From: an uncultured Candidatus Saccharibacteria bacterium
GTDB taxonomy: Bacteria > Patescibacteriota > Saccharimonadia > Saccharimonadales > CAZARM01
Direction of reading: 5' to 3'
Assembly (NCBI GenBank): GCA_964463635.1
Contig: CAYXCB010000001.1
Coordinates: forward strand, 7,526 to 71,525
Length of the DNA: 64,000 bases
Shown here: piece by piece, positions 17,261 through 62,093 of the stretch
Layout of the letters: each line of letters opens with the position of its first letter
Position numbering within the stretch: position 1 is the stretch's first letter
The notes under the pieces: generated by a model
Seen by the model: the letters and a program-made list of their open reading frames with translations, nothing else
What the model was told of the DNA's origin: nothing
Database searches by the model: none
Program-made: the position numbers and the translations under genes

Positions 17261-17886
17261 AAAAAAGAATCCTCTATATTTTTAACTTGTTACTTTGGTG
17301 CTTGATTGCTCAGATGAAGCCAAAGTGATAGTCAAAAACTCGGATTCATGGAAAGACAATACCTATACATTAGCATGATATCTGTCCTGAGTCAACGTTA
17401 TAACAAAAAAGCACCAGAAAATCTGATGCGTTTTTGGTGGAGCTGGTGGGTACTGCCCCCACGTCCGCTAGTTTAACTGGTTAGTCTATCCTACAGGTGT
17501 AGGTCATTTGAATACATCATGGGATAAAAATGACCAAAAAACCATGATGGTCGATCCTGATCTTAGTCCGACTACGGATCAATTGCCGAAAGCAATCAGA
17601 AAATATGTCACGCTGTATCGCTATCTGATGTCACAATAGGCGCGGCTTTAGAAATTAAGCTAAAGCTGGTGCGAACTGGCGACCGAAGAGAAGTGTTTTA
17701 CCACTCTCAAAGGCGCTAGCTACGCGATCAAGTAGTTTTGCAACTATTTGGGTTCGTCTATACGCTGACAAGCGACCTGCTGATCTAACCGTTAAAGTCC
17801 AACGTCGAGCTTAAAATTCAGCCCCGTATATGATTTATCACTTCTTACAGTGATCTGTACATTATACCACTTATGTCAATAAATTG

Positions 17887-32555: not shown

Positions 32556-32630
32556 GGTCTCATCGTCTAACGGTTAGGACACCAGGTTTTCATCCTGGCA
32601 ATCCGGGTTCGATTCCCGGTGAGATCACCA
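32556..32630 (+). tRNA. tRNA-Glu (anticodon UUC)
   Basis: Cloverleaf: acceptor GGTCTCA/TGAGATC, anticodon stem CCAGG/CCTGG with loop TTTTCAT, T-arm CCGGG-TTCGATT-CCCGG, encoded CCA. Confidence 0.8.
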
Positions 32631-37018: not shown

Positions 37019-38449
37019 TTAAGTTTTTGAAGTTTCTTTGGTTGGTGGGAGGGATTTAAGCTTGGATTTGGCAAAACTAAAGCCAAAGGTACTGCCCTTG
37101 CCCTCTTCGCTCTTAAAGATCAGGCTGCCGCCTTGGGCGACTATAACTTTCTTAGCCATGAACAGGCCTAGGCCAGTACCGTCCGGCCGGGCTTGTTTGG
37201 CGTTGCCAGCCCGGAAAAACTTGGTAAACAAATGGTGCTGCTCGTGTTTTGGAACGCCCAAGCCATCATCCATGACGGTAAACTCTACGCTAGTTGGCAA
37301 GTCTTTGACCTCGATGTTGATGTGACCGCCGGCCGGCGTGTAGTAAATGGCGTTATCGACAAAGTTCATAATCACCTGGCGTATTTTGGTTTCATCCAGC
37401 ATCAGCATGGGGAAATCTTTTGGCTTCTCGTACTTGAGTTCAAGTTTACGGCCGGCCGCGGTTTCTTCTAACTGTTCCACTTCGCCTTGGACGGCTTCGG
37501 CCAGATTGGTTGGTACGGCTTCGATGATAAATTTACCGGTTCGCAAGCGCGACACGTTCAGTAGGTCGGCTATCAGGTAAACCATGCGCTGCGAGCTGAT
37601 AAAGGCCTGGTCCAGCAGTTTGTGCTGGCTAGCGGTTATTTTGCCCGAGTCACCCTCTATAACCATGCTGAGGTAGCCTTTGACTGATGTCAGCGGCGTC
37701 CGGAGCTGGTGTGAGGCCATACTGATGAACTCGTCCTTGGTCTCATCCAGCGCTTTCAGCTTTTCATTCGTCCGTTGCAGCTGTTTGAGCACCCGCTGGT
37801 TTTCCTCGAACAGTAAGCGGTTATCAATAGCAATCCCCACCGCCTCGCTGAGACGCTCCAGCAAAGTGTTTTCTTTTTCATTGATGTCATGCTTTTCCTG
37901 CGTCAGCCCGACAACCATCAACCCAACTAAGCGGTGCCTGGCCATAAGTTTAATAATAACCACACTTTGGACTGGTAATTCATGGCGCAAAGCCGTTATT
38001 TCGTTAGAGGATAAGCCAGTTAGATCGCTTAGGTCGTCAGTGGTAATGGATCTTGCGCTAATAGTCATCATCCGCGTCTGGCTAGACAGCCACTGATTGT
38101 GCTTGTCCAGGTCGATGTGCAAACGTTTAGTTTCCGGCGGTTTTCCAGATGAGGTTGCAAGACCCACTAGCTCCAAGGAATTATGATGAGAGGAATTTGT
38201 CAGAAAGGCGACTAGAGCGTAATTGGACTTATCCGTAATAGCACTGGCCATCTGTTGGCATAGAACATCAAGTGTTTCATGCGACTCTAACACCAGGCTG
38301 TCAATTTTGCGCAGAAGCGATAGCATTTGGTTGGTTTGGGCCAGCTCAAGGTTGCGTTTGTACATCTCCTGAGAGACATGGGCCAAGTCTTGCTCAAGCT
38401 GCTTTTTTTTGGTCATTGGCCTTTTCAGGCGTAATTTTTCTTTTTCCAC
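37019..38449 (-). CDS. sensor histidine kinase (soluble, coiled-coil/GAF-like N-terminus)
   Basis: H-box ISMASHQLRTPLTSVKGY, HATPase_c N, G1, G2 boxes. Confidence 0.8.
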   Translation of the reverse strand: MEKEKLRLKRPMTKKKQLEQDLAHVSQEMYKRNLELAQTNQMLSLLRKIDSLVLESHETLDVLCQQMASAITDKSNYALVAFLTNSSHHNSLELVGLATSSGKPPETKRLHIDLDKHNQWLSSQTRMMTISARSITTDDLSDLTGLSSNEITALRHELPVQSVVIIKLMARHRLVGLMVVGLTQEKHDINEKENTLLERLSEAVGIAIDNRLLFEENQRVLKQLQRTNEKLKALDETKDEFISMASHQLRTPLTSVKGYLSMVIEGDSGKITASQHKLLDQAFISSQRMVYLIADLLNVSRLRTGKFIIEAVPTNLAEAVQGEVEQLEETAAGRKLELKYEKPKDFPMLMLDETKIRQVIMNFVDNAIYYTPAGGHINIEVKDLPTSVEFTVMDDGLGVPKHEQHHLFTKFFRAGNAKQARPDGTGLGLFMAKKVIVAQGGSLIFKSEEGKGSTFGFSFAKSKLKSLPPTKETSKT

Positions 38450-38766: not shown

Positions 38767-39618
38767 TTAGCCTTCGTTCTCTTGAACTTTCAGCCTGGGG
38801 ACGCTTTCGTTGTAAGCCAGCAAGGAAAGGGCTAGTAGGTTTGCGCCAGCAAATAGGACCAGGTCGCCCCAGTTAGCATTATAGAAAGTGCCGACTGTGG
38901 TCGTATAGGAGAAAATAATGTCGCCAAAGTACATAACCAGCATGCCAAGAAAAGTCAGTATTAACGGCAGGCGTAGTTTGCCACCTAAATATTTGCCGGC
39001 GATAGCCGCAATGATCGCCACCAGTGTAAAGGAAACAAAGTCGGCCACAGGATAGAACACATCTAGGAACGTTTTAAGTTTATCAGTGGTGTCAGAAAAG
39101 AACTCTCCTTGTTTAGCAACTACCACCGCTAAGTAATAAGTTAGCGCCACACTTAGGCCGCAAAGTATAATAATGCCCCACCACAGCAGCGGTTTCTTTT
39201 TTAACACCAAATTAACACCGGCCAGCCGAGTTAAGAGCACAGTGCTAGCCGCATATAAGGTAACACCTGACGCAAAACCTACGTCAGCCACGGACGGATA
39301 CGGCGCTTCTACTTCTAAAACTAAATTGTAATAAGACCATATGAGTTCGCCAGCCGACCATAGAAATAGGCCCAGCGACAGCAGGCCGATCGAGCGCCCA
39401 AGCACGCTGGACATACCGCCCCATCTTTTGGCCGCCATAAAACCCTTCAAGCTAGCCAGAAAAGGCACCACGCCAAGCATTAGTGAGAAGTAGTAGTTAA
39501 GGTTAGCGTCAACTGTGTGCTGCATTTGAACAACCACCCACATACCTAAGGTTAGAACCATTAGAAAAACAATAAACAAATTGTATTTACTCTTCCAGAA
39601 AGTTTTTGTAGATAACAT
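38767..39618 (-). CDS. hypothetical polytopic membrane protein (~8 TM)
   Basis: Multiple hydrophobic helices; likely co-operonic with the histidine kinase. Confidence 0.5.
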   Translation of the reverse strand: MLSTKTFWKSKYNLFIVFLMVLTLGMWVVVQMQHTVDANLNYYFSLMLGVVPFLASLKGFMAAKRWGGMSSVLGRSIGLLSLGLFLWSAGELIWSYYNLVLEVEAPYPSVADVGFASGVTLYAASTVLLTRLAGVNLVLKKKPLLWWGIIILCGLSVALTYYLAVVVAKQGEFFSDTTDKLKTFLDVFYPVADFVSFTLVAIIAAIAGKYLGGKLRLPLILTFLGMLVMYFGDIIFSYTTTVGTFYNANWGDLVLFAGANLLALSLLAYNESVPRLKVQENEG

Positions 39619-39696: not shown

Positions 39697-40929
39697 ATGC
39701 CCCTCATCAAAACAAAAAAATCATTTGAGTCCTTTACTGCTGATTGCAATCATTTGGCAAGTAAAATCTTACAGCGCCGCTATGACCTCGTGGGCTTGCT
39801 ATCGCAATATGAGACATATGAAACCGCTAATGACGAAATTGAGCGATCAGTAGAGGCTTTAAGGGGTATGAGCAAAGAGCTATCCGCAATTAAACACCCG
39901 TTGAGCAACCTCACTATCTCTACCTTTTTTCCCTTAAACCTCCCCCTTTATTCACTGGTCTTGTTTGGTATTGCTCCAAGTGTTTTCGCTCGACAAGTTT
40001 ACATTCGACCGCCTGAAATAATGCATAAAATGCTCCAGGAAGTATTTGAGTTCCTGGAAATTAGCAAACTTTTTGCCAACATTTCCGTCCATGTGGTGCC
40101 GCGATATATTTTTATGGATTTATATGCATCGGAGTCTGACGTGATTGTTTTCACCGGTAAATATGAAAATGCTCTGTCAATTCATAAGCAATGTCCTCAG
40201 GCTCTGCTGGTGTATAACGGCAGCGGCATAAATCCTTTCTTGCTATTTGACGACGCCAATATTGACCTAGCTGTCGCCAAGGCCGTCGAAATGCGCTGTT
40301 TTAACAGCGGCCAGGACTGTGCAGGGCCAGACGCTTTCTTTATCCCGACTACCTTAGCCGACGCTTTTGTCGGCAAGCTGCAAAGAGCCTTAGAGCAGGT
40401 AAAAGTAGGCGACTCAACTGATCCGGAAGTTAGAGTTAGCCGCACCATGAAAGAAACTTATATCCAACAGCTTCAGCCCGTCCTGGAAAGAGAGCGCCAA
40501 AATCTAGTTTACGGGGGTGAGATCGACCTGGAAAAGCATCTAGTTCATCCTACTATAGTCGTTAAACCCATTGCGGAACATGCTGGCAACTTCCATGAGT
40601 TCTTCGCGCCAGTTTTTTATGTACTCGAATATAACGATATTGCTGAATTGGAAAAAGCCCTGTTTAGCCAAGAACTTATAGATCGTTCTATGTATATCTC
40701 TGTGTTTGGCAATAATGAAGAAATTGAGAATAAATTGACCTTTGCCCGTCTACTGAAAGATAAGATAGTAAACGACGTTGAGCGCGGCAACTATGAATAT
40801 GGCGGCTACGGGCCAAACGCTAACTTCCTGCTCTACGGTGACCAAAAAGTGATCCAGCCAGTATTAATCAGCCGCGATATGCACAGCCAGCTGGCCCGAG
40901 CTTCTAGTCACGCAGCTGCTCAGCAGTAG
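39697..40929 (+). CDS. aldehyde dehydrogenase family protein (short form)
   Basis: FFPLNLPL (PWNFP-like), catalytic Cys motif CFNSGQDCAGPDAF, EFFAPV Glu motif. Confidence 0.6.
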   Translation: MPLIKTKKSFESFTADCNHLASKILQRRYDLVGLLSQYETYETANDEIERSVEALRGMSKELSAIKHPLSNLTISTFFPLNLPLYSLVLFGIAPSVFARQVYIRPPEIMHKMLQEVFEFLEISKLFANISVHVVPRYIFMDLYASESDVIVFTGKYENALSIHKQCPQALLVYNGSGINPFLLFDDANIDLAVAKAVEMRCFNSGQDCAGPDAFFIPTTLADAFVGKLQRALEQVKVGDSTDPEVRVSRTMKETYIQQLQPVLERERQNLVYGGEIDLEKHLVHPTIVVKPIAEHAGNFHEFFAPVFYVLEYNDIAELEKALFSQELIDRSMYISVFGNNEEIENKLTFARLLKDKIVNDVERGNYEYGGYGPNANFLLYGDQKVIQPVLISRDMHSQLARASSHAAAQQ

Positions 40930-42331
40930 CCACTGAATTACTTAGCAACGTAACAAGTTCTAGGGGTCGGCTCTTTGTAACTAATTCCCTAAACTCAACT
41001 GGCACATCGATAAGGCTCAGTATTTTTTGCCTGTCCTCAGTATTGTAAGCTTTTCTGCTAATGGCGTAGGCCAGAGTATGTGAGACTTGGGTTAAAGCTG
41101 TACTAAGTGATTCTGGTAACTTTTCCTGATGCATCAATGCCTTTTGGGCTACGGCCGGATCAATGCATACAAAACTATTGAATGCGCTTTCGATTATAAC
41201 TCTGTTGGCGTGGTTATAAAGCAGCTGATGAAACCGCTGCGGAGCTATGACAATGATGGGACTTGCCGTCTTGTCTTGCTTTACTTTTTTAAGCAGTTTA
41301 TTGGTCGCGTATAGCAAATAGGCAGCTTTTAATGGTACGCCAGTAGCAGTGCGAAGCGAGGCCATAGGACCAGATTCTATATGGTAGTAGGCGGCTTTGC
41401 TCTCGGGATCCCTGATTAGGCCAAGCCCTTCAGAATTTAGGCTATATTCGTCAATCCACCGATTCGTTTTAGCGATGATTTCACTTTCTTGCTGGGCGTT
41501 CGGTTTTGTACTGTCTTCAAAATTGCTCAGATTTACAGCCTGAATATAGTGCTTTAGCAAATCTTGAAGTTTTTTTACGTTGGCTCTTGTGAGATCGGTT
41601 TCCAATGATGCTAACCAAGCACTAATTTTTTTTTCGCGTTGGGCCAGTGGCGCACTAATACTAAGCTCCTGGCGGTAGTCGGCAACGGATTGAGCCTGGT
41701 CATTATTGTCATTGATCCACATTTGGAGATTCAGTAATTCTGCAATCTCCTCTGAACTATCTGGTATTAGGTACTCGCTTTTTAGGTTATAGCCAGCTAC
41801 ATGATAAATATCGCTGATAAACCTATAGACAGTCTCGGCATGCTGGTCGTCAGCTGCCTGACCCAGAGTAGATCCGGCAACCAGTAAAAACACATATTTA
41901 TTACGGTCTTTGCGCGATTGGGGTTTTTGCAGCCAATGAGCTACATAATAGGCTGTCTCAGACAAGTAATTTTCTGAGAGTTCAAAGTTAATGTACCCGC
42001 TGACAGCCTCTGTCTGGACATTATCTAACATCGTAGGGTGGGATTTGTGAAGCCATCGTTTGACATGTTCGGCTAGGGTCTCAGCAACTTCTCCTGGGTT
42101 ACTCTTTAAAAGATTGGCTAGCTCAAAACAGGGGAAAACGTAATCAATATGCTTCCCATTGCCGGCTTCGATCGCCTTGGCCTGTTTGTTAACCTCTGGC
42201 ATGAAATCAACACCATAGGTCTGATATACTGCCACCTTCAAGACCTGGCCCAAAAATTCCCGAGGGTGCTTAGTAAGACCGGTAATTGTTTCCAGAGAAT
42301 CTTGTCTTTTGAGTTTTCTACCTAGTTTCAT
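40904..42331 (-). CDS. arginyl-tRNA synthetase-like protein with degenerate HIGH motif (possible ArgRS paralogue)
   Basis: N-terminus matches the Arg_tRNA_synt_N domain (DYVFPCFELANLLKSNPGEVAETLAE ... SGYINFEL), but the expected HIGH region reads LGQAADDQHAE and the protein is only 475 aa. Confidence 0.4.
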   Translation of the reverse strand: MKLGRKLKRQDSLETITGLTKHPREFLGQVLKVAVYQTYGVDFMPEVNKQAKAIEAGNGKHIDYVFPCFELANLLKSNPGEVAETLAEHVKRWLHKSHPTMLDNVQTEAVSGYINFELSENYLSETAYYVAHWLQKPQSRKDRNKYVFLLVAGSTLGQAADDQHAETVYRFISDIYHVAGYNLKSEYLIPDSSEEIAELLNLQMWINDNNDQAQSVADYRQELSISAPLAQREKKISAWLASLETDLTRANVKKLQDLLKHYIQAVNLSNFEDSTKPNAQQESEIIAKTNRWIDEYSLNSEGLGLIRDPESKAAYYHIESGPMASLRTATGVPLKAAYLLYATNKLLKKVKQDKTASPIIVIAPQRFHQLLYNHANRVIIESAFNSFVCIDPAVAQKALMHQEKLPESLSTALTQVSHTLAYAISRKAYNTEDRQKILSLIDVPVEFRELVTKSRPLELVTLLSNSVATAEQLRD

Positions 42332-42369: not shown

Positions 42370-43260
42370 TTAATGATATATGAAAAACAGGCCGACAATC
42401 ATAACAATCATGCACAGGATTTTCTTGGGCAAGCGCTTGTCCTTTATTTCACGAAAATATTTTGGGAAAAACGGGCTCAAGGCAATACCGAACACTAGCA
42501 CGAACAGTGGCTGCAGCCCTTCAATGCCCTTAACCACAGATAACGCCCCTGCGCTGATAGCGTAGCCTTGGGTCATTTCAGCCAATATATTTACGACTTC
42601 AGCCACTACAAGAAAAAGTAAAATTATAACTTTGGATGATTTTACTACTTTCTTAAATTCTGTTTTTTTCTGGCTAAAAGCTAGGAATGTCAGGCCGCCG
42701 ACACCGAAACCGAACGATACCCACATGTAAATTTCTGCAAAGGTGCCTCCGCGGTAGGCGTATTTGCTCAAAATGGCCGCAAAGGCGTAGATCACTGCAC
42801 CAATGGTGGCGTAAAAAATAGCAGACGATAGTTTAAACTTGCGTATTTCCAGCAATGAAAGCACAAATGACGCCAGGATGATTATAGCTAGTCCTATGTA
42901 CTGCGAGGTATGCAAAACTTCGCTGAGCAACATAAAGGCCAGAAACGGTACTAGTGCTGCCGACAAGTTGTTGAGGGCGACGGCTACAGATGGCTCATCG
43001 GCGTCGAGCGTACGGAAGTAAAAATAGTAGAAAAAAACCGTCAGCACGCCAGCTCCAATGGCACTAGCCACATAACGAGGCTCGCTTGCAATTCGCTCAT
43101 TGGTCACGAACAGGTAGAAAGATGGCAGGAAACCGAATAAACCGGAAATAACCGCGCCAAAAGCGGCACTGCGATAGACGTTTTTGAGCAAATTGTCGTC
43201 TATGAGGTTAACAACTGCCCACAGAATCGTCGCTGTTATCGCCGCAATAAACCAAGTCAT
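42370..43260 (-). CDS. EamA/DMT-family transporter
   Basis: ~10 TM helices in two 5-TM halves; 296 aa. Confidence 0.55.
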   Translation of the reverse strand: MTWFIAAITATILWAVVNLIDDNLLKNVYRSAAFGAVISGLFGFLPSFYLFVTNERIASEPRYVASAIGAGVLTVFFYYFYFRTLDADEPSVAVALNNLSAALVPFLAFMLLSEVLHTSQYIGLAIIILASFVLSLLEIRKFKLSSAIFYATIGAVIYAFAAILSKYAYRGGTFAEIYMWVSFGFGVGGLTFLAFSQKKTEFKKVVKSSKVIILLFLVVAEVVNILAEMTQGYAISAGALSVVKGIEGLQPLFVLVFGIALSPFFPKYFREIKDKRLPKKILCMIVMIVGLFFIYH

Positions 43261-43349: not shown

Positions 43350-43718
43350 ATGCCAAAAGTAGCAATCGTAGAAGATGACCAGGCGATCAGCCAGATGTAC
43401 CGCATCAAGTTTGAGGCGGAAGGATTCGAAGTCGAAACCGCCGAAAACGGCAAACTTGGGCTAGAGCTAGTCGAGAAAATGATGCCTGACATCATATTGC
43501 TTGATCTGATGATGCCCGAAATGACCGGCGACGCTATGCTTCAGAAACTGCGTGCGACCGACTGGGGCAAGAATATCAGAGTTATCATCCTGACCAACAT
43601 GGGCGAGCAAGAAGCCCCGCCAATTGTGAAAACCCTCGATGTAAGGCGCTTTATAGTCAAAGCCGAGATGACGCCTCGCCAAGTAGCCGAGATGGTCAAA
43701 AAAGAACTTGCCCAGTAG
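43350..43718 (+). CDS. stand-alone response-regulator receiver domain (CheY-like)
   Basis: VEDD acidic pocket, phospho-acceptor Asp in ILLDLMMP, conserved K in RFIVKAEM region; 122 aa. Confidence 0.75.
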   Translation: MPKVAIVEDDQAISQMYRIKFEAEGFEVETAENGKLGLELVEKMMPDIILLDLMMPEMTGDAMLQKLRATDWGKNIRVIILTNMGEQEAPPIVKTLDVRRFIVKAEMTPRQVAEMVKKELAQ

Positions 43719-50513: not shown

Positions 50514-51386
50514 ATGCAATATATGAAAAAACTTGGTGTCAAAACTTTATTGGCAGTATTTGCCGTGGCCTTTGCCATAGCTCTAAATGGGTCAGTTGTT
50601 GTACGTGCGGGCACTTCGCCCACCCTAAACAACCTACTAAGTTATTCCGTTCTAGGTGGCGCAGAAGTGACTTGTACCGGCTCGACCACCATAACCGGGG
50701 ATGTGGGAGTTAGCCCTGGCACTTCAATTTCTGGCTTTCCTAGTCCGTGTGTTGTTGGCCCTCCGGGCACAACGCATTCCAATGACGCCAGCGCCATAGC
50801 GGCTCAAGCCGAAAACCTCGTTGTCTTTGGCGCTCTTGACCAAACCTGTGATCAGACTTTTGGCGCGGTAGATCTGACTGCAACCTTTCCATCAGGTGTC
50901 GGACCTGGTGTCTATTGTTCCACCAGCAGCTTCTCGCTGAGCGGGAATCTAACCCTTACCGGGGCTGGTGTATGGATTTTTAAAACAGTATCTACATTAA
51001 TTACCTCACCAGGTTCATCTGTTACCGGTGGCGACCCGTGTAATGTATGGTGGAGAATCGGCAGCTCAACGACTCTCGATACGACTACTTCATTCGTAGG
51101 AAATGTTTTATCGCAAAACGGCGCTAACGCTATGAATACCGGCGCGACCTTGAACGGTCGATTCCTGGGACTAGCTGCTGCTACGGTGACGCTGGATGAT
51201 AATACGATCTCGGGACCAACATGCGTGCCTTCGTTTGGTCCAGGTGGTAGTACTACGCCAGGACTGCCCAATACGGGGATCAGTCCTGAGGACACAAGCA
51301 GCGCCTCGTGGAACATTCTCATACCCGCTGGGGTTGTCATTGCTCTAGTATCGCTCTACCTAGTTCGAAAGAAACGCGCACTATAA
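50514..51386 (+). CDS. LPXTG-anchored surface protein
   Basis: Signal peptide; C-terminal LPNTG, hydrophobic helix, RKKRAL tail; immediately upstream of a sortase gene. Confidence 0.65.
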   Translation: MQYMKKLGVKTLLAVFAVAFAIALNGSVVVRAGTSPTLNNLLSYSVLGGAEVTCTGSTTITGDVGVSPGTSISGFPSPCVVGPPGTTHSNDASAIAAQAENLVVFGALDQTCDQTFGAVDLTATFPSGVGPGVYCSTSSFSLSGNLTLTGAGVWIFKTVSTLITSPGSSVTGGDPCNVWWRIGSSTTLDTTTSFVGNVLSQNGANAMNTGATLNGRFLGLAAATVTLDDNTISGPTCVPSFGPGGSTTPGLPNTGISPEDTSSASWNILIPAGVVIALVSLYLVRKKRAL

Positions 51387-51410: not shown

Positions 51411-52025
51411 ATGAATTTATCGAAAACATCGTTTAAACGAACAGTATTCCTGCTAATCATTGTAGGATTTGCGTTCTCTCCAGCGTTTATTCGCTATTTC
51501 AGCTTAAGACCGACTCAGAACGACTCCGCGCTACTTGTAGTAGACCCGCCTACTATTGATAAAGAAAAGGTAAACCCGGGTTTGCCGACCCGTCTTAAGA
51601 TTCCAAAAATCAACGTTGATGCAGCTATTGAGCATGTGGGGCTTACTTCCGGGGGAGATATGGATATACCAAAAGGCCCAACTACTGCAGGCTGGTTCAG
51701 CCAGGGACCACGCCCTGGGGCAAATGGCAGTGCCGTGATTGACGGACATTTTGGATATAGAAATGACATACCGGCCATATTCGATAATCTTCATACCTTG
51801 CAGAAGGGGGACAATATTTATGTCGAAGATGATAAAGGAGCAATTATTATTTTCGTGGTTCGGGAGTCACGGCAATACAGTCCAAATGAAAATACCTCAA
51901 GTATATTTACTTCAAACGACGGCAAAACCCATCTAAACCTCATAACCTGCCAGGGAATTTGGAGTAATAGCCAAAGAAGCTACTCTAAGCGCTTAGTAGT
52001 ATTTGCTGATAAAGAAATAGAATAA
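51411..52025 (+). CDS. sortase (transpeptidase)
   Basis: N-terminal membrane anchor, catalytic His region and LITCQG (TLxTC) catalytic Cys motif. Confidence 0.7.
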   Translation: MNLSKTSFKRTVFLLIIVGFAFSPAFIRYFSLRPTQNDSALLVVDPPTIDKEKVNPGLPTRLKIPKINVDAAIEHVGLTSGGDMDIPKGPTTAGWFSQGPRPGANGSAVIDGHFGYRNDIPAIFDNLHTLQKGDNIYVEDDKGAIIIFVVRESRQYSPNENTSSIFTSNDGKTHLNLITCQGIWSNSQRSYSKRLVVFADKEIE

Positions 52026-52036
52026 GTTCTTAGCTC

Positions 52037-52378
52037 TCAGCTTTTAGAAATTTCAGCTAACCGACTACGCACAAGTTCTTTAATAATAGACTCGGGAAGG
52101 GGTTTATCTTCAGTAAACTGGATTGTGCCTTTGCCCAATTTATAGCCTTCGAGTTTATCTTTTATAGCTTCGGTTCGAGGCCCCGGAAATACACTCATAT
52201 GGTTTTTAAACGCCGCAAAGTGAATTAAATACTTACCCTTGTATTTCAATGTAGGGATGCCGTAGCTTATTACTTCCTCAGCGTCAGGCACCATTTGCTT
52301 AACGAGCTGGCGGATCTTTTCTAGTTCCGCTCTCTGTGAGGGCGTTGTGCTTTCTAGATACTCATCAATAACTATCAT
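52037..52378 (-). CDS. DUF1801 (YdhG-like) domain protein
   Basis: 113 aa; overall similarity to the DUF1801 family pattern (recalled, not computed). Confidence 0.5.
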   Translation of the reverse strand: MIVIDEYLESTTPSQRAELEKIRQLVKQMVPDAEEVISYGIPTLKYKGKYLIHFAAFKNHMSVFPGPRTEAIKDKLEGYKLGKGTIQFTEDKPLPESIIKELVRSRLAEISKS

Positions 52379-52399
52379 TACAATATATTATCAAATTAT

Positions 52400-52418
52400 T
52401 GGAGGGCCGGGAGGGACT
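52400..52418. repeat. putative att repeat (imperfect copy of tRNA-Lys 3' end: TGGAGGGCC..GGGACT)
   Basis: Matches the 3' ~20 nt of tRNA-Lys at 61996..62018 (TGGAGGGCCCAGTGGGACT) with 3 mismatches; lies exactly where chromosomal-type genes give way to XRE/ImmA. Confidence 0.45.
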
Positions 52419-52592
52419 TACTGCTTTAGATGAATTTTGGAGGTCTACCAAGGGAGTAGTTTATATATTTATATTGAGGAACTAATGCGATGGAGACAGC
52501 TATTGGATAACAGATACCGGCAAAATCAGCTTAACAAGCGTCGCAGTAGCGTTGTTTATTCCTAGTAGTGGTTACATACGCAGATTAAGAGG

Positions 52593-52820
52593 TCAGTGGT
52601 TACTGCCTTTTTCCTTGTCTTGATATATGTCATACACAAGATTAGCGAGGTCTTTAGCGTCCCTCTTCATTCTCAGCCTAGTTCTGGCTTGCTCTAAAGC
52701 GTCCTTTGCCAGCAAATCTAACGTAGTTATTACTTCCAGAATCTCGTCATCACTCATTCCGGTAGCGTTAGCACCGAGTATTTCCCGTGCTTCTTTAATA
52801 GAAACTATTGGATTCATCAT
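52593..52820 (-). CDS. hypothetical small protein
   Basis: 75-aa ORF downstream of ImmA on the same strand. Confidence 0.4.
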   Translation of the reverse strand: MMNPIVSIKEAREILGANATGMSDDEILEVITTLDLLAKDALEQARTRLRMKRDAKDLANLVYDIYQDKEKGSNH

Positions 52821-52828
52821 TCAAACGC

Positions 52829-53350
52829 CTAGAGTAATTTTATTAGTCCACTGTTTGTAATTTGAATCCACAGTGCGTCTTTACTTACCCCATACCGCTT
52901 CGCAAGTTCCTCAATATCTTTGATTCCAGCCTTTATATCAGCTCGTAGAAACTTAGTCGGCATTAACAGATATGCCGCAAAGTGGTCGGCTTCTTGCTCA
53001 TCAAAACTCTTGTAGCCGTGATGAAGGCTAGAGTTACCCATAACGTGTCCGAAGTAGAGATGGCCTATTTCGTGTGCAACCGAGAATCGTTGCCGTACAA
53101 CAGCCCTATTCTTATTATAAAGAATTACTAGTTGACCATTCCGATTAACAAGCATTGCGTCACGCTCCTTACCAGTGATACTTTCATCGGCTGGAACGAT
53201 TACGGCACCAAACTCATCTTTAATCAGCTTGTATATCTCATTGAGCCTGACAGGAGCTTGAGTAATTTTAGCGGATTTTAATAGTGCAAGGGTCTTATGC
53301 CTTGCTTCTGTGAACTTGGCTTCGTTAGTTGTCTGATTGCTTTCGTCCAT
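52829..53350 (-). CDS. ImmA/IrrE-family metallo-endopeptidase
   Basis: HEIGHLYFGH (HExxH) in a ~170-aa protein overlapping an upstream XRE repressor gene. Confidence 0.75.
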   Translation of the reverse strand: MDESNQTTNEAKFTEARHKTLALLKSAKITQAPVRLNEIYKLIKDEFGAVIVPADESITGKERDAMLVNRNGQLVILYNKNRAVVRQRFSVAHEIGHLYFGHVMGNSSLHHGYKSFDEQEADHFAAYLLMPTKFLRADIKAGIKDIEELAKRYGVSKDALWIQITNSGLIKLL

Positions 53351-53696
53351 CTTGGTTCTTTGACAGTTTCAACGCGTCAATAAACGATTCAACTCTTTTG
53401 ACGTCGTCTTGGTCTAGGTGTTCATCTGCTCTTAGAGCAATTTGTACGCTTGGCTGTGGGCTTGTTGTCGTGTCGCCTTTTATAAAGTAATTTACGTCAC
53501 GGTGAAGAAGCCTAGCTATCTCCTCCAAGTCGCTTATTTGAACTCTACGTTCACCAGCTTCAATGAGGGATATGGCAGTAGGCGACTTGTAGTCCAGCTT
53601 TTGAGCTAGTTCAGTCTGTGTTAGGCCCTCGGCTTCACGAGCTTTCTTGATTCTTGACCCAATCTGAGCGTACTTCTTTACTTCGTTGTTTTCCAT
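53325..53696 (-). CDS. XRE-family helix-turn-helix transcriptional regulator
   Basis: LTQTELAQKLDYKSPTAISLIEAGER HTH_3 motif. Confidence 0.8.
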   Translation of the reverse strand: MENNEVKKYAQIGSRIKKAREAEGLTQTELAQKLDYKSPTAISLIEAGERRVQISDLEEIARLLHRDVNYFIKGDTTTSPQPSVQIALRADEHLDQDDVKRVESFIDALKLSKNQDGRKQSDN

Positions 53697-53729
53697 ATTG
53701 ATATATTACATTTATCAGAAAGTATTGAC

Positions 53730-53765
53730 AAGCATTTATCGTTTTGATAAATTGATAATTACAAA
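53730..53765 (+). promoter_or_regulatory. candidate promoter (TTGACA-N17-TAAATT) with TTGATAA direct repeats in divergent XRE / DUF2188-TIR region
   Basis: Consensus -35 and near-consensus -10 with 17-nt spacer ahead of the DUF2188-TIR-membrane operon; operator-like repeats overlap. Confidence 0.4.
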
Positions 53766-53805
53766 CTAAACTCTTGAGGGTAAAACAAGGGGGAAAGGAC
53801 ACAAA

Positions 53806-54027
53806 ATGGCACGAAAAGTTTTTCACGTAGTACCTTACGGCACAAACTGGCAGGTCAAGCACAATGGTCAGGTACTTAGTAACCACACCTATAAGGCAAA
53901 CGCTATCAGCTCAGGGCAACTAGTAGCTAAAGCGAACCAGCCAAGCCAACTCGTAGTACATCGGGCTGATGGAACTATTGAGTTTGAGTACACATACGGT
54001 AACGACCCCTACCCACCAGTTGGGTAG
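53806..54027 (+). CDS. DUF2188-domain protein
   Basis: 73 aa; HVVPYGTNWQVKHNG...YGNDPYPP matches the DUF2188 pattern; GGGGAAAGG Shine-Dalgarno. Confidence 0.6.
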   Translation: MARKVFHVVPYGTNWQVKHNGQVLSNHTYKANAISSGQLVAKANQPSQLVVHRADGTIEFEYTYGNDPYPPVG

Positions 54028-54063
54028 GTCGTTCTTGCATTTAAGGGTAAAATATGGAGAGTT

Positions 54064-54642
54064 ATGAGTTTAGCGGACGAATTATATAGAGCTATGTACG
54101 GCCAGGAGCCAACTGTACCTAAGCCAATTAAGTGGAGCGGTTTCCTGCCGCCAGCGAAAGCTCAGCCTAAGCCAGGTTTTGTGCGAATAGCAAAACCGCA
54201 GCCACGCCCTTTCGTCAGAATTGCCAAGCCGAAGGTGTTTGTTAGCTTTGATTACGAGAATGACCGTCTTTATAAACAGGCATTGGATATGTGGGACGCC
54301 AATAAGCGTTTTGATTTTAGCTTTAAGAGTAATACACCCCAAGAAATCCAGTCCGAAAGCGTAGAAAGGGTAAAAGCAGTTCTGACAACAAAAGTAAAAG
54401 CGTCCAGTCACGTTGTAGTATTGGTTGGTAAATACGCCAACGAGCTGCACAGCGATAGTCAAAAAATTGGTTTTCGTAATTGGATAAACTTTGAAGTTTA
54501 CCAAGCACGTTATTATAAGAAGAAGGTTGTTGTTGTAATGCTAAGCCCGTACAACACACTACCTGAATGGTTGCGTGGTTCAGGTGCAACCCTAGTTAAC
54601 AGCTTCAACGAAAAAGAAATAATACAGGCCCTAAGTAAGTAG
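54064..54642 (+). CDS. TIR-like domain protein (ThsB / MTH538 DUF1863-like) with N-terminal Pro/Lys-rich tandem repeat
   Basis: KVFVSFDYEND beta-A motif (compare ThsB RVFFSFHYQD), central VVVLVG strand, and NWINFEV W-x3-E motif (putative catalytic Glu); N-terminal FVRIAKPQPRP / FVRIAKPK repeat. Confidence 0.6.
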   Translation: MSLADELYRAMYGQEPTVPKPIKWSGFLPPAKAQPKPGFVRIAKPQPRPFVRIAKPKVFVSFDYENDRLYKQALDMWDANKRFDFSFKSNTPQEIQSESVERVKAVLTTKVKASSHVVVLVGKYANELHSDSQKIGFRNWINFEVYQARYYKKKVVVVMLSPYNTLPEWLRGSGATLVNSFNEKEIIQALSK

Positions 54643-54647
54643 GCAAT

Positions 54648-55277
54648 ATGGCAAAACTAAGCGAAGATACAAAACTTGAAGTTCTGAGTGACCATTATAA
54701 GGAAACCGTTAACGATTTTAAGAAAACAGGCAAAAGTCGTGACCTAAACTTTTTTGCGGTACTTATATTCCTAGGTGTGATGACGTTCCAGTTCGTTTCT
54801 CCACACCAGTCACAAAGCATACTTACACAAGTAATTAACTCCCGCTTGGATATAGATGCAGCTCTTAGCATTAACCTGCTTGGTTCACTGATTTGGCTTG
54901 CATTGCTTTTCGCTGCGATTCGCTATTTTCAAGCCGTCATTAACCTTGAAAAACAGTACAACTACAGCCACGACCTTGAAGACTTATTAGCTAAAAGCTA
55001 TGACAATAAAGCGTTTACCCGTGAAGGCAAATCTTACCTGAAAGATTATCCTGTATTTTCAAAATGGGTACATTTTGTCTATCGTAAGCTGTTCCCGCTA
55101 CTCTTGGTTATTGCATTAACTGTAAAAATACTTGGAGAGTGGTTAGCCAATAAAACAAATGCGTTACCTCTAGCACTAGACTCTGTCATTTACGGAGCAC
55201 TGTTAGTGTCAATAGTCCTCTATGTCTACTCGTTGCAAAAGACTGAAAAGCACACAGAAAAAGACGTTAAAAAATAG
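54648..55277 (+). CDS. 4-TM membrane protein, candidate effector partner of the TIR protein
   Basis: Starts 5 nt after the TIR stop; four predicted TM helices with a ~60-aa cytoplasmic loop; no Macro/SIR2/SLOG motif recognisable. Confidence 0.5.
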   Translation: MAKLSEDTKLEVLSDHYKETVNDFKKTGKSRDLNFFAVLIFLGVMTFQFVSPHQSQSILTQVINSRLDIDAALSINLLGSLIWLALLFAAIRYFQAVINLEKQYNYSHDLEDLLAKSYDNKAFTREGKSYLKDYPVFSKWVHFVYRKLFPLLLVIALTVKILGEWLANKTNALPLALDSVIYGALLVSIVLYVYSLQKTEKHTEKDVKK

Positions 55278-55288
55278 CCCGACTTTAT

Positions 55289-55834
55289 TTATAGATTTGT
55301 TTCGTTGGAGAGCTTTATTCTGACTTTTTCAGTCATTGTATTGGTGCTGACATAGCCAAGTGCGTCTACATCTGGGTCGTAGAGTTCAATCATATCTAGG
55401 TCATTGCGTGGAAATACCCTCGCACCTTTTATTACTTTGCCGTCAATTAGCGACTGTTTTAATTCGCCGTATTGCTCTGGTTCAAGGTAGAAATCAACAT
55501 CTCCAACGTGGTTGCGATAAGGGTCTGGCTTACGAATATATAAATGAGTGTAGGTAGTTTCTGGGACATCGTCTTGAGCGGGAATAACAATAGGTTCGTG
55601 TAGAGTAAAGTATTTTTGATTTGGGTCATCAGATGGTTCGGTAAGTTCTTTACGAATTGCTAAAAGCCTTTCGTATTCGTCGTCGTAATGACAAAACACG
55701 CCCATATTGCCAGCATTAGGCAAGTATTTATCAAACGACTGTTTGCAGAGCTTATAACAAGCAAAGTGAATGTACTTTGTGGCTTCAACTAACTGGTCAT
55801 TGTTTTCTATGGGGCTAAATCTATAAAGTTTCAT
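55289..55834 (-). CDS. hypothetical protein
   Basis: 181-aa ORF, last gene of the minus-strand redox operon; no motif recognised. Confidence 0.4.
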   Translation of the reverse strand: MKLYRFSPIENNDQLVEATKYIHFACYKLCKQSFDKYLPNAGNMGVFCHYDDEYERLLAIRKELTEPSDDPNQKYFTLHEPIVIPAQDDVPETTYTHLYIRKPDPYRNHVGDVDFYLEPEQYGELKQSLIDGKVIKGARVFPRNDLDMIELYDPDVDALGYVSTNTMTEKVRIKLSNETNL

Positions 55835-55836
55835 TG

Positions 55837-56415
55837 CTAAAATCCTGGGTCGTTGAAGTAATCAATACTAAATATGTCAGAAGCCTCCGCAAAGTTATTA
55901 CGCTCCCACTGCATAAAGGGCTTGGGATTGCCTTTGGGTGATATTTCTTCGTTATAGAACTTGGGATTAACTTTAGCTTTGGCGTATCCACCAATTACCA
56001 TTAAGTGGTTGCCGCCTACATCTTTCGGTAAACCTATAATCTTGTATTCCACCCAACCCAAAGCGTCTTTTAGGACTGGTCCGTGTTCTGAAAAGTCCAA
56101 GTCTAAGCTATCGTTAAACTCCTCAATTTTATCTTTGCCGGAGTTGTAACCCGAATACTTTTGGCCGAGTTTCCATACTAGCTCAAGTTGCTCTCGGTGA
56201 GGAACAGATACAGTAAAGGCTTTAGCTGTTTTCAGGCTTTCGGCAGTAATCCAAGGTTTATAGACAGCAATCATCACCATACTAGGTTCGGTACTTATTG
56301 AGGTGATGTTATTGATTGGAATAATGTTTTGGCGACCATCTTCTGAAACAGTGCCAATTAGCACCACCAATCTAGGAGCAAGAATCCTGTGTATTTTGTC
56401 TGTTACTTCAATCAT
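55837..56415 (-). CDS. flavin reductase-like (FMN-binding split-barrel) protein
   Basis: Flavin_Reduct-like pattern (LVVLIGTVSEDGRQNIIPI...S.EPSMV..V). Confidence 0.55.
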   Translation of the reverse strand: MIEVTDKIHRILAPRLVVLIGTVSEDGRQNIIPINNITSISTEPSMVMIAVYKPWITAESLKTAKAFTVSVPHREQLELVWKLGQKYSGYNSGKDKIEEFNDSLDLDFSEHGPVLKDALGWVEYKIIGLPKDVGGNHLMVIGGYAKAKVNPKFYNEEISPKGNPKPFMQWERNNFAEASDIFSIDYFNDPGF

Positions 56416-56426
56416 AACTACTCTTC

Positions 56427-57167: not shown

Positions 57168-57170
57168 AGA

Positions 57171-58600: not shown

Positions 58601-58768
58601 TTACCTCTTAAAATCTGTCTTTTTAGTGGACACTTTTCTTAAAATTACTTTGCGAACACCAGTATTTACTAAGGGGTCGCACAAACACCGCTCAGAGAGG
58701 CTGAGAATGGCTTAAAACCTGTATTCAGGCTCGCATTGACTACTGTTTCTTATTAGACTGCCGACAAT

Positions 58769-58987
58769 ATGTCAAACAACCTAGAACAAGCAGTCAAAAA
58801 CCGAAAAGAAATGGCAGAAATCAAACGTAAATTGCTGACTGGCGAGATTAGCCGAGACGAAGCAAAACGACTAGCACAACCAATAATTAATTTAGCAAAT
58901 AAGCATTGTGTGGAAATAGCAAAGAAACACGGCAAGAAACCATATAAGTTAAACTTCACTAGTTTAATGAGAGATAGTTACGGATGA
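58769..58987 (+). CDS. small hypothetical protein
   Basis: 72-aa ORF on the integrated element, stop overlaps the next small ORF start (ATGA). Confidence 0.35.
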   Translation: MSNNLEQAVKNRKEMAEIKRKLLTGEISRDEAKRLAQPIINLANKHCVEIAKKHGKKPYKLNFTSLMRDSYG

Positions 58988-60322: not shown

Positions 60323-60469
60323 ATGAAAAAGAAGACAGATTGGCGTCCGTACTATTTATTCAAATACACGGCGGAAAAAAGAGTTTGTTATCTGTATTAC
60401 AGAAACATACGAACAAAAGAAGTTAAGAAAATTGGAAAGATAGAGGTACAAAAAGATGTTAAGAACTAA
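60323..60469 (+). CDS. small basic hypothetical protein (48 aa) overlapping the recombinase start; possible excisionase/directionality factor
   Basis: AAGGAGG Shine-Dalgarno 7 nt upstream of ATG; stop overlaps the recombinase ATG. Confidence 0.3.
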   Translation: MKKKTDWRPYYLFKYTAEKRVCYLYYRNIRTKEVKKIGKIEVQKDVKN

Positions 60470-62093
60470 AGCAATCGCACTATGTCGTGTATCAACTAAG
60501 GGTCAAATGCTAGACGGCAACCTTGAACCACAAAAGGAGAATGTAGAGAAAGCAGCTAATATTTTAGATACAGACCTAGTAAAAGTCTGGGCATTAGCCG
60601 TATCTAGTCGTAAGGGTAAAAACGTAAAGCGTAAAGATTTGCACGAAATGCGTGACTACTGCAAAAGATTCAAATCAGTTAAGTACCTAATAATAGACGA
60701 GCCAGACAGATTTATGCGCTCAATAAAAGAGTATTACTGGTGGAAAGTGGAATTTGAGCTTGTTGGTGTACAGATACGCTTTTCAAACAATCCAACTGCT
60801 GACCCCGAAGATGATAGGGTTGTATTTGATGAGCTGATAGATGTCTATCGTGCTGAGCAAAGTAACAATGAACGAATTAAGAAAACTCCAGGTAAAATGA
60901 TGGCAAAGATTCGGGCTGGCTACTATCCAAGTAATCCGCACACTGGCTATAAGAAGTCTGATATACCAGGTTTGCACGAACCAGATGAGCCAAACTGGTC
61001 AGCTATGCGAAGTACGTTCAAGGAAATGGTATCTGGTGAACTAACAGTTAGCGAGGGTCTTAAAGAAGTCACCAAACGTGGACTACGCACTAAGAACTAT
61101 GGACCGAAAGCTGTAGGTGGCAAAACAATTGATATGTTCCGCTGGAAAGCCCTTATGTGCGACCCGTACTATTACGGATTCCTTAAACTTGGCGATTGGT
61201 CAGAGGAAAATGCGAACGGTTTACATAAGACAATGATTACAAAGGAGGAACACGAAATACTTGTAGCGTTGGCAAAGAATAAGGGTAAACGATTTATAGT
61301 GAACCGAAACAATCCTGAATTCCCGTTCTCAAATGAGGCGGAATGTACGAGGTGTGTATTTTCTGATAATCCTTACCCTAGGTTAGTTGGCTACTGGCAA
61401 AATAATGGAGCAAAGAAAAACAGACTTAGGTATAGGCGTTACAGATGCAGAGACTGCAATCTTGGAGTGAGGCAAGAGGCACTCCACGAAGGCATAACGG
61501 AGGAGCTATCACAGCTCCTCTTGTCTTTAGAACAGAAAGAAAAGCTAAAGGAACACGCCCGAAAGATATGGCGGTCATACGAAAAAGTAAGGATTGAACA
61601 GGCTAGAATAGCCTTAGGACGACTTACAATACTGAAAGAAAAGAAGAACAAGTTCATTGAGAGCTTAGTAGCCAACCCAAACCTTGCAGAAGACATTCAA
61701 GAATCAATTGAACAGATTAAAAGTGATATTGTTGTAGCCGAACAGGAAGCGTCAGAAGCTCAAGACTTTGAAAAGGACTTCATAGAGTTTATAGGCTTTG
61801 CTTTTGACTTTATGGACAACTTAAAGGGTAAATGGTGGGAGTTAGACAAGGACACTATGAAAATATGTAAACAAGTGTTATTTCCGTGCGGAATCCAGCT
61901 ACTCCCAAATAAAAAAGTTTATATACCTAAAATTAGCCTAGTTTACGGGGGTGATGATAACAAAAAAGCCCCCGAAGGGGCTGATTTTACTAGACTGGAG
62001 GGCCCAGTGGGACTCGAACCCACGACACTCTGCTTAAGAGGCAGATGCTCTAACCAACTGAGCTATGGGCCCATATTCCAATTGTACATGTAG
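60456..62093 (+). CDS. large serine recombinase (resolvase domain + recombinase domain + zinc ribbon + coiled coil)
   Basis: N-terminal IALCRVSTKGQ (catalytic Ser), DEPDRFMRS, recombinase-domain block, CTRC...CRDC zinc ribbon, C-terminal coiled coil; last ~30 codons overlap tRNA-Lys on the opposite strand. Confidence 0.8.
   Translation: MLRTKAIALCRVSTKGQMLDGNLEPQKENVEKAANILDTDLVKVWALAVSSRKGKNVKRKDLHEMRDYCKRFKSVKYLIIDEPDRFMRSIKEYYWWKVEFELVGVQIRFSNNPTADPEDDRVVFDELIDVYRAEQSNNERIKKTPGKMMAKIRAGYYPSNPHTGYKKSDIPGLHEPDEPNWSAMRSTFKEMVSGELTVSEGLKEVTKRGLRTKNYGPKAVGGKTIDMFRWKALMCDPYYYGFLKLGDWSEENANGLHKTMITKEEHEILVALAKNKGKRFIVNRNNPEFPFSNEAECTRCVFSDNPYPRLVGYWQNNGAKKNRLRYRRYRCRDCNLGVRQEALHEGITEELSQLLLSLEQKEKLKEHARKIWRSYEKVRIEQARIALGRLTILKEKKNKFIESLVANPNLAEDIQESIEQIKSDIVVAEQEASEAQDFEKDFIEFIGFAFDFMDNLKGKWWELDKDTMKICKQVLFPCGIQLLPNKKVYIPKISLVYGGDDNKKAPEGADFTRLEGPVGLEPTTLCLRGRCSNQLSYGPIFQLYM
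61996..62072 (-). tRNA. tRNA-Lys (anticodon CUU)
   Basis: GGGCCCATAGCTCAGTTGGTTAGAGCATCTGCCTCTTAAGCAGAGTGTCGTGGGTTCGAGTCCCACTGGGCCCTCCA: full cloverleaf, anticodon loop CTCTTAA, encoded CCA. Confidence 0.8.

Follow-up and report, generated by a model that had tools for sequence, protein, structure and literature searches.

A short arginyl-tRNA synthetase–like protein without catalytic motifs, encoded beside an aldehyde dehydrogenase–like gene in Saccharimonadia

A 64,000-nucleotide (nt) stretch of DNA from an uncultured Candidatus Saccharibacteria bacterium (contig CAYXCB010000001.1 of assembly GCA_964463635.1; referred to as the window and numbered from its first letter) contains a gene whose 475–amino acid (aa) product resembles arginyl-tRNA synthetase (ArgRS). 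We propose that this ArgRS-like protein is a dead ArgRS paralogue that serves as a noncatalytic, probably tRNA-binding partner of the aldehyde dehydrogenase (ALDH)–like enzyme encoded by the adjoining convergent gene, a combined statement to which we assign a probability of about 0.6. The first part of this statement is the firmest: the gene very likely encodes a catalytically dead ArgRS-derived protein and is not the housekeeping argS. Physical association with the ALDH-like protein and a joint chemistry are what we infer from the features of the two genes described below.

Results

The ArgRS-like protein belongs to a family of short proteins with a predicted ArgRS fold

The only Pfam match of the ArgRS-like protein is PF03485 (Arg_tRNA_synt_N), which covers residues 45 to 118 (E = 3.5e-7; 31.2 bits compared to a cutoff of 21.5 bits). 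The ArgRS catalytic core (PF00750) and the DALR domain (PF05746) were not found by the same search even at E = 10. The NCBIfam argS equivalog model covers just residues 48 to 140, scoring 27.6 bits against a cutoff of 460 bits, and a phmmer search of PDB chains with the full protein returned no match. A first-pass annotation made from the DNA letters had assigned the N-terminal part of the protein to the additional N domain of ArgRS and had described the protein as shorter than functional enzymes. Both statements stand: the strings quoted in support of the former, DYVFPCFELANLLKSNPGEVAETLAE and SGYINFEL, occur in the protein, and it is 75 to 135 aa below the length of canonical ArgRS (26 sequences recovered, 541 to 605 aa). 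The hidden Markov model (HMM) scan proposed in that annotation is the one reported above.

An exhaustive HMMER search of 1.84 billion representatives at a threshold of E ≤ 1e-10 yielded 55 related proteins (clusters at 50% identity). Nearly all of them are 400 to 480 aa long and are matched end to end (with the members located through their genomic loci included, lengths range from 331 to 483 aa); canonical-length ArgRS enters the search only at E = 4.6e-4, via the N domain alone. Family members are 18 to 35% identical to the window protein. In the alignment of 49 members on which all family residue counts below are based, D63, Y64, G112, N115, R327, G331, and D391 are invariant. PF03485 is matched by 44 of the 49 proteins, PF00750 and PF05746 by none. 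The named sources are Candidatus Saccharibacteria or Saccharimonadales metagenome-assembled genomes (MAGs) and soil metagenomes, and the other loci fit this assignment in both gene order and degree of identity. Judging by these sequences, the family appears to be mostly one of Saccharimonadia, plus related bacteria. One 4-kb contig (DALYDJ010000078.1, locus L003) is labeled Candidatus Woesebacteria. We discounted this label as a sign of wide taxonomic range and regard the bin assignment as doubtful, since the response-regulator receiver and the ALDH fragment encoded there are 79% and 62% identical to those of the window and look Saccharimonadales-like. In the searched literature, we found no description of a catalytically dead ArgRS-derived paralogue.

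The AlphaFold2 model of the window protein, built with the family alignment, has a mean predicted local distance difference test score (pLDDT) of 86.3 and a predicted template modeling score (pTM) of 0.85. When the model was compared to the PDB with Foldseek, the top 20 matches were all ArgRS structures (E = 2e-13 to 8e-7; query-normalized TM score, 0.42 to 0.61; 445 to 638 aligned columns), the best being 1iq0 (E = 2e-13). MshC and CysRS (E around 1e-4) and then MetRS followed in the list. Because the top 20 structural matches are all ArgRS and 44 of 49 family members match PF03485, the resemblance is beyond chance. In a profile-profile comparison by hhalign, the family matched 26 canonical ArgRS from public genomes with an overall probability of 99.8%. 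When the N domain was left out, residues 171 to 347 were still colinear with the ArgRS core (probability of 73%, E = 3e-5); the last ~130 residues gave no significant sequence signal in this comparison. The catalytic core is thus unmatched in Pfam and NCBIfam, yet its predicted fold superposes on ArgRS structures. In the model, the whole chain has the ArgRS fold with a shortened DALR part, so that the structure prediction also suggested by the first-pass annotation bears out the name “ArgRS-like.”

The examined catalytic residues and most arginine-binding residues are lost

For comparison at the level of residues, the family alignment was merged by MAFFT with 27 canonical ArgRS including E. 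coli ArgS, whose numbering is used for the canonical positions. The first-pass annotation had noted that no HIGH motif is present at the expected site, within LVAGSTLGQAADDQHAE (residues 150 to 166). In the merged alignment the residues opposite HIGH are AADD, and the independently made hhalign alignment gives the same register, which also fits the model, where a strand at 146 to 152 is followed by a helix at 159 to 178. Within the HIGH motif, G131 is present in 26 and H132 in 25 of the 27 canonical sequences, and the columns are variable in the short family. No profile method (Pfam, NCBIfam, hhalign, or the MAFFT merge) recovered an alignment that contains HIGH.

Most of the arginine pocket is gone as well. 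The D118 column is D or E in 27/27 canonical ArgRS and hydrophobic in the family (A152 in the window protein); N123, invariant among the canonical enzymes, is variable (G157); and D317 (26 D and 1 E) has become Y or F in 46 of the 49 family members (Y338). The R134 column holds L, V, T, or I in the family and H164 in the window protein. Y313 is conserved as Y or F in 42/49 family members and replaced by L334 in the window protein, and Q341 is partly kept (Q in 22, H in 11, and A in 6 members; Q365 in the window protein). Among the pocket residues D118, N123, Y313, D317, and Q341, the window protein therefore retains only the equivalent of Q341. E. coli ArgRS no longer binds arginine when it carries D118A or D317A as a single mutation (PMC3956977). 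The Arg of the MSTR loop (R383), which corresponds to the KMSKS motif and is present in 27/27 canonical sequences, is replaced by variable residues (S, D, A, or K) in the family and by A383 in the window protein. The same motifs are lost in the distant short members from loci L044, L045, and L046.

The anticodon-binding domain measures about 85 aa in the ArgRS-like protein versus about 190 aa in canonical ArgRS. The QYxxxR...K columns of DALR are replaced by variable residues in the short family, and several further conserved DALR columns are deleted together with the terminal LLGI...M columns. With HIGH, the MSTR/KMSKS-equivalent loop, and most of both the arginine pocket and the anticodon-binding domain lost, charging of tRNA should not be possible.

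The first-pass annotation had left two options, a pseudo-synthetase paralogue that binds tRNA or a very divergent essential argS. The results support the former and effectively exclude the latter. In support of the protein being the organism’s sole, extremely divergent, functional ArgRS, one could point out that neither the 64-kb window nor any fetched Saccharimonadia locus contains a canonical argS. This absence is expected, however, because the window covers only a small fraction of the host genome, the size of which we take to be roughly 1 Mb. HIGH, the MSTR-loop Arg, four of the five examined arginine-binding residues, and most of the anticodon-binding domain are missing; single mutations among these residues are sufficient to abolish arginine binding in the E. 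coli enzyme, as mentioned above; and the residues that replace them are not conserved even within the family.

The tRNA D-loop–binding domain is retained

The best-conserved part of the short family is the N-terminal Add1 domain, which in ArgRS binds the tRNA D-loop. Its mean pairwise identity within the family is 0.35, compared to 0.13 to 0.28 elsewhere (0.19 in the HIGH-side half of the Rossmann fold and 0.13 in the helical insertion). The family profile matches the N domain of Thermus thermophilus ArgRS (1iq0), and the Add1 signature D63, Y64, P67, C68, F69, and L71 shows the same degree of conservation in the short family and in real ArgRS. In ArgRS, tRNA-Arg A20 is contacted by a Tyr/Phe-x-Asn motif of this domain through stacking and hydrogen bonding (E. 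coli F82/N84; T. thermophilus N79; PMC3956977, PMC8975779). The aromatic residue of this motif is Y in 45 and F in 4 family members, the Asn is present in all 49, and the distant members from L044, L045, and L046 likewise have the motif. Since Add1 is the best-conserved region, selection seems to act mainly on the D-loop–binding module. The conserved A20-pocket residues suggest that the ArgRS-like protein probably binds tRNA, and the ligand may be tRNA-Arg. In a scan of 13 loci for tRNA-Arg (position 20), no such gene was found; only tRNA-Glu, tRNA-Lys, tRNA-Ser, and tRNA-Met genes are present.

The ArgRS-like gene is paired with an ALDH-like gene

Pairing was assessed in all loci (designated by L numbers) that encode a short family member and include downstream sequence (n = 14, with the window). 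An ALDH-like gene of ~400 aa abuts the ArgRS-like gene in 14/14 of them. As in the window, the two genes are arranged tail to tail in L001 (assembly GCA_028289135.1), L002, L003 (where the contig holds only the 3′ end of the ALDH gene), L004, L037, L038, L039, L041, L042, and L043. The distant pairs were located by a search from the ALDH-like side. In L045 (a Daviesbacteria MAG, GCA_016176395.1) and L046, the ALDH-like proteins are 45% and 47% identical to that of the window, and the tail-to-tail pair is kept with all flanking genes different; the partners are Add1-containing proteins of 409 or 440 aa (family HMM E = 6.5e-13 and 4.6e-20). In L044, a 944-kb contig with 70% GC and unrelated flanks, the ALDH-like gene is followed by a co-directional gene for a 331-aa family member (family HMM E = 8.5e-25) with a 4–base pair (bp) overlap. 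The L044 segment 8001-12000, which contains the ALDH-like, ArgRS-like, and methyltransferase genes, has 65% G+C in a contig otherwise at 70%. This difference suggests that an organism other than typical Patescibacteria gained the two genes together.

Across loci, the ALDH-like proteins are 52 to 66% identical versus 22 to 35% for the ArgRS-like proteins. Together with the loss of all catalytic motifs examined and the spread of lengths, this fast divergence relative to the neighbors is what one would expect of a decaying, functionless relic of a displaced argS that persists through its 3′ overlap with the conserved ALDH-like gene. We consider such decay very improbable. The overlap with the ALDH-like gene is just 4 to 26 nt or absent and cannot protect a 1.4-kb open reading frame (ORF), whereas 55 clusters at 50% identity have intact ORFs, the fold prediction is confident, and the seven invariant residues listed above have persisted across 49 divergent sequences. 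Genomes of Patescibacteria are also very small, so that one would hardly expect a conserved gene of 1.4 kb to lack a use.

In two loci, the ALDH-like gene lies beside or near a gene for full-length ArgRS

In L047 (a Jorgensenbacteria MAG) and L048, ALDH-like genes whose products are 40 to 41% identical to that of the window are located near genes for full-length ArgRS of 616 or 628 aa. The two genes are tail to tail and 15 nt apart in L048; in L047, one methyltransferase gene lies between them. Both ArgRS retain D118, N123, Y313, D317, and Q341 as well as an MSTRKG or LSTRKG loop. Their HIGH motifs read GVGH and GINH. A residue other than His at the first HIGH position is also found in 8 of the 27 canonical ArgRS; the Asn of GINH replaces the Gly that is conserved in 26/27. 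From these sequences, the ALDH-like gene appears to be coupled across Patescibacteria to one of two partners, the dead short form or an ArgRS that seems to be functional.

Descent of the short family from ArgRS of the L047/L048 type was considered and is not supported. The family HMM scores best on ArgRS of the GDYAFPCFELA type from DPANN archaea and the candidate phyla radiation (CPR), reaching up to 75 bits over the N domain and the first half of the core, compared to only 29 bits on the L047 ArgRS with its E. coli–like core, although the comparison set is biased.

These loci also bear on the possibility that the ArgRS-like protein is a free-standing factor that binds tRNA-Arg or another RNA, such as a tRNA chaperone, a sequestering protein, or a subunit that gives specificity to a tRNA-modifying enzyme, and that its adjacency to the ALDH-like gene is inherited order. 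Conservation of the A20 pocket and of Add1 would be expected of such a factor, and the convergent orientation of the genes argues against co-transcription. An S-adenosylmethionine–dependent methyltransferase gene is present beside the pair in L001 and L044 or, as mentioned, between the ALDH-like and ArgRS genes in L047, and in human DALRD3 there is a precedent for an ArgRS-derived domain that guides a tRNA methyltransferase. The methyltransferase is not a constant neighbor, however. The adjacency to the ALDH-like gene outlives complete turnover of the flanks in L044, L045, and L046, takes the form of a co-directional overlap in L044, and has its counterpart in L047 and L048, where the ALDH-like gene lies next to or close to a gene for full-length ArgRS. 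On balance, we find a free-standing factor unlikely and favor a role of the ArgRS-like protein as a noncatalytic subunit of the adjacent ALDH-like enzyme.

The ALDH-like protein retains the catalytic Cys but lacks the general base

The AlphaFold2 model of the ALDH-like protein (pLDDT of 94.5) has a standard ALDH fold (Foldseek TM scores of 0.74 to 0.79); the Foldseek search returned generic ALDHs only and did not separate subclasses. Residues were counted in 116 sequences of its family. Besides the catalytic Cys, the oxyanion-hole Asn (N81, in PLNLP) and the cofactor-binding Glu (E301, in EFFAP) are invariant in 116/116. We take N81, E301, and C208 to be the equivalents of Asn169, Glu399, and Cys302 of human ALDH2. 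At the general-base position, Asn is found in 112 sequences and Glu in only 4. In ALDHs, this Glu268 activates the water molecule that hydrolyzes the thioacyl-enzyme (PMC6127216). With the Cys kept and the general-base Glu absent, a thioester would be formed but not resolved by water, which is compatible with a reductase or acyl-transfer role of the enzyme. Since the partner lacks the Glu that promotes hydrolysis of the thioacyl intermediate, the expected donor or acceptor of its acyl group would be a compound different from water.

Neighboring genes and other features of the window

Coordinates of the features described above and of the neighboring genes are given in Table 1.

Table 1. Position of the ArgRS-like gene, its parts, and neighboring genes in the window.
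Feature	Position	Strand	Remarks
ArgRS-like pseudo-synthetase gene	40904..42331	-	ATG start, 475 aa plus stop
Add1 (ArgRS N-terminal, tRNA D-loop–binding) domain, aa 45-135	41927..42199	-	PF03485 at aa 45-118; best-conserved family region
Y113-I114-N115, equivalent of the A20-recognition Tyr/Phe-x-Asn motif	41987..41995	-	E. coli F82/N84; T. thermophilus Y77/N79
A159-A160-D161-D162, HIGH position	41846..41857	-	Opposite E. coli H129-V130-G131-H132; family columns variable
Degenerate Rossmann-type core with helical insertion, aa 146-392	41156..41896	-	hhalign; Arg-binding and MSTR-loop residues replaced
C-terminal helical bundle of ~85 aa, aa 393-475, truncated DALR remnant	40907..41155	-	Five helices over 392-474 in the model
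Short ALDH-like gene (410 aa), convergent	39697..40929	+	PF00171, E = 7e-27; 3′ end overlaps the ArgRS-like gene by 26 nt
Catalytic Cys208 codon (FNSGQDCAGPD)	40318..40320	+	Invariant in 116/116; aligned to the GQTC Cys of E. coli GabD
Asn174 codon, where ALDHs have the general-base Glu (human ALDH2 Glu268)	40216..40218	+	YNGSG opposite GabD LELGG
283-aa membrane protein gene, adjoins the ALDH-like gene	38767..39618	-	Possible third component of the module
EamA-family transporter gene	42370..43260	-	PF00892; immediately upstream of the ArgRS-like gene, 38-nt gap
Stand-alone response-regulator receiver gene (122 aa)	43350..43718	+	PF00072; conserved Saccharimonadia neighborhood
GAF-HisKA-HATPase sensor kinase gene	37019..38449	-	Conserved Saccharimonadia neighborhood

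The 283-aa membrane protein had no match in Pfam or NCBIfam; its identity is 34 to 39% with the products of two genes on the flanks of the L045 pair and 56% with an L001 neighbor. The EamA gene is possibly co-transcribed with the ArgRS-like gene: no promoter-like site was found in the gap between them, although the promoter and terminator scan around the gene was uninformative. An EamA-family gene is also located upstream of the pair in L044, without BLAST similarity to that of the window.

The block that recurs in Saccharimonadia consists of the receiver, ArgRS-like, ALDH-like, and sensor kinase genes. Receivers that are 71 to 79% identical are encoded beside the pair in L001, L002, L003, L004, L037, and L038, and Response_reg genes are also present in L041 to L043. 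Orthologues of the sensor kinase in other loci are seven-transmembrane (7TM)–GAF kinases of about 730 aa; most Saccharimonadia loci have two genes of unknown function before the 7TM kinase, the window and L001 differing in detail. The outer flanks vary, with FolD and a Mur ligase in some loci and HisRS and HisG in others. Such constancy raises the possibility that the ArgRS-like protein is an accessory or sensor of the neighboring two-component system, which would report a ligand or uncharged tRNA to the 7TM-GAF kinase: every examined Saccharimonadia locus that reaches far enough has response regulators and a sensor kinase around the pair, and the receiver is highly similar across loci. We hold this to be improbable. 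In the fetched regions of L044 and L046, the pair is accompanied by neither a kinase nor a receiver, nothing ties the ArgRS-like protein directly to the kinase domain, and with the arginine pocket destroyed, sensing of arginine through the ancestral site is unlikely.

Several other genes accompany the pair in some loci. The methyltransferase beside the ArgRS-like gene in L001 [9238-9996(+)] and L044 [10511-11269(-)] is a 252-aa protein of the NNMT/PNMT family, and the two copies are 34% identical. It passes the cutoff of the NCBIfam model GntF, the guanitoxin N-methyltransferase (93.8 bits compared to 60 bits). Guanitoxin is derived from arginine; the match is suggestive but may reflect only similarity at the level of the family. 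In four non-Saccharimonadia loci, a gene for a minimal nucleotidyltransferase of ~190 aa (GS...DxD; weak PF18765/PF01909) is located immediately upstream of the ALDH-like gene (L046, 7442-8008; L047, 3960-4490; L048, 5432-6004; L049, 1727-2299). It overlaps the start of the ALDH-like gene in L046, L048, and L049, not in L047, and is absent from the window and the Saccharimonadia loci. In L049, the ALDH-like domain is fused to a metallo-β-lactamase (MBL)–fold (Lactamase_B_2) domain in a protein (P0165; 2283-4334) that belongs to a cluster of 42 sequences. In L046 (10727-12555) and L048 (9215-11120), MBL and Amidohydro_2 are encoded by separate genes located after the ArgRS or ArgRS-like gene, with 46 to 48% identity between loci. 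Arginase-family genes are present in L046 and L049 (59% identity); in L049, the arginase-family and nucleotidyltransferase genes are upstream of the fusion. A PADLOC search with ten module genes found no known defense system and gave marginal matches to the nucleotidyltransferase only.

A tRNA-Glu(UUC) gene at 32556..32630(+) of the window recurs 7 to 9 kb from the pair in six loci (also L001, L002, L004, L039, and L041), probably as plain synteny. In L001, a recombinase gene adjoins tRNA-Glu. Farther away in the window, positions 52000 to 62100 have a G+C content of 0.38 to 0.42, compared to 0.45 to 0.51 elsewhere. This stretch ends at an ORF for a 545-aa large serine recombinase with a Resolvase N domain [60456..62093(+)], the 3′ end of which overlaps a tRNA-Lys(CUU) gene [61996..62072(-)], and looks like an integrated mobile element. 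A transfer-messenger RNA (tmRNA) gene at 17435..17825(-), unreported by ARAGORN, matches Rfam RF00023 with 50.9 bits (gathering score, 47 bits). The 290-aa product of the ORF at 50514..51386(+) contains an Ice_binding-like domain (PF11999, E = 2e-33), and a homologous domain is encoded in L041.

Discussion

Several observations weigh against the view that the dead ArgRS paralogue works as a partner of the ALDH-like enzyme. Evolution of the ArgRS-like gene proceeds at roughly double the rate of its neighbors, a possible sign of weak constraint. The pair is convergent in most loci and therefore not co-transcribed in them, and within Saccharimonadia, the pairing could be mere inherited synteny. 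In L049, where the ALDH-like domain is fused to the MBL-fold domain, no ArgRS or ArgRS-like gene is detectable in the 2.5 kb downstream. The lack of a canonical argS in the window and in the fetched Saccharimonadia loci counts on the same side, and the conserved pocket might bind something other than A20.

If the partnership exists, the ArgRS-like and ALDH-like proteins could form a two-subunit, tRNA-dependent reductase or acyltransferase. In such a scheme, the A20 pocket of the dead synthetase would serve to dock Arg-tRNA(Arg), the Cys of the ALDH-like protein would attack the aminoacyl ester, and NAD(P)H would reduce the resulting thioester to an amino aldehyde such as argininal, unless the acyl group is passed to another acceptor. 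Where a full-length ArgRS is encoded beside the ALDH-like gene, it would itself do the docking. This would amount to chemistry of the glutamyl-tRNA reductase type reinvented on an ALDH scaffold and feeding a small-molecule pathway, with the arginase-family, MBL-fold, amidohydrolase, minimal nucleotidyltransferase, N-methyltransferase, and EamA exporter proteins as lineage-variable accessories. We regard the scheme in this specific form as rather unlikely.

For annotation, the consequence is direct: members of the short family should not be labeled argS, nor should they count as an ArgRS marker in estimates of genome completeness or in metabolic reconstructions. More broadly, HisZ and other dead synthetase paralogues exemplify the recruitment of translation enzymes into metabolism and regulation. 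The short family keeps the part of ArgRS that recognizes tRNA-Arg’s D-loop, discards the chemistry, and sits beside a putative thioester-forming enzyme with the ALDH fold. It offers a testable link between tRNA-Arg (or ArgRS) and an unknown reaction of the ALDH type in Patescibacteria.

Comparison with known systems

Canonical ArgRS (a class Ia synthetase; 1IQ0; E. coli 4OBY/5B63; the GDYAFPCFELA type) shares with the short family the predicted whole-chain fold, the Add1 domain, and the DY...PCF.LA and GY.NF signatures. Remnants of the core are colinear as well, with RSDGT.LY corresponding to LRSAxGxLY and VVG.EQ..HF to VIAPQ..H in the family. Unlike canonical enzymes, the short family has no HIGH, no Arg equivalent to that of MSTR/KMSKS, and no Asp/Asn/Asp arginine pocket, and its DALR domain is cut.

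By analogy, the closest conceptual counterpart of the ArgRS-like protein appears to be HisZ, a catalytically inactive paralogue of HisRS that acts as the regulatory subunit of the short-form adenosine triphosphate phosphoribosyltransferase HisG(S) (PMC10795190, PMC9734150). Like HisZ, the ArgRS-like protein is derived from an aminoacyl-tRNA synthetase, has lost aminoacylation, and would serve a metabolic enzyme that is encoded nearby and is a “short form” in both cases. The two differ in that HisZ originates from a class II synthetase and still binds its cognate amino acid as an allosteric effector, whereas the ArgRS-like protein comes from class I ArgRS, with its arginine pocket destroyed and the tRNA D-loop pocket kept.

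The ALDH-like partner recalls glutamyl-tRNA reductase (HemA/GluTR), in which a Cys attacks the aminoacyl-tRNA ester and NADPH reduces the thioester to an amino aldehyde (PMC6399207). The ALDH-like protein has the Cys, an oxyanion hole, and a nicotinamide-cofactor site but no hydrolytic base. GluTR, however, combines a fold of its own and tRNA recognition in a single protein, while here an ALDH fold would depend on a putative ArgRS-derived subunit for recognition of tRNA.

Two further systems share single traits. Human DALRD3, a DALR-domain protein, directs METTL2 to tRNA-Arg and thus illustrates the reuse of a noncatalytic ArgRS-derived module for the tRNA-Arg specificity of another enzyme; it keeps DALR and partners with a methyltransferase, whereas the short family keeps the opposite end of ArgRS, Add1, next to an ALDH-like enzyme. 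In the fatty-acid reductase LuxC/LuxE, a separate activating protein delivers an acyl group to the Cys of a reductase of the ALDH superfamily, where it is reduced to an aldehyde. LuxE differs from the ArgRS-like protein in being an active adenylating enzyme of another fold, the ArgRS-like protein having lost its adenylation motifs.

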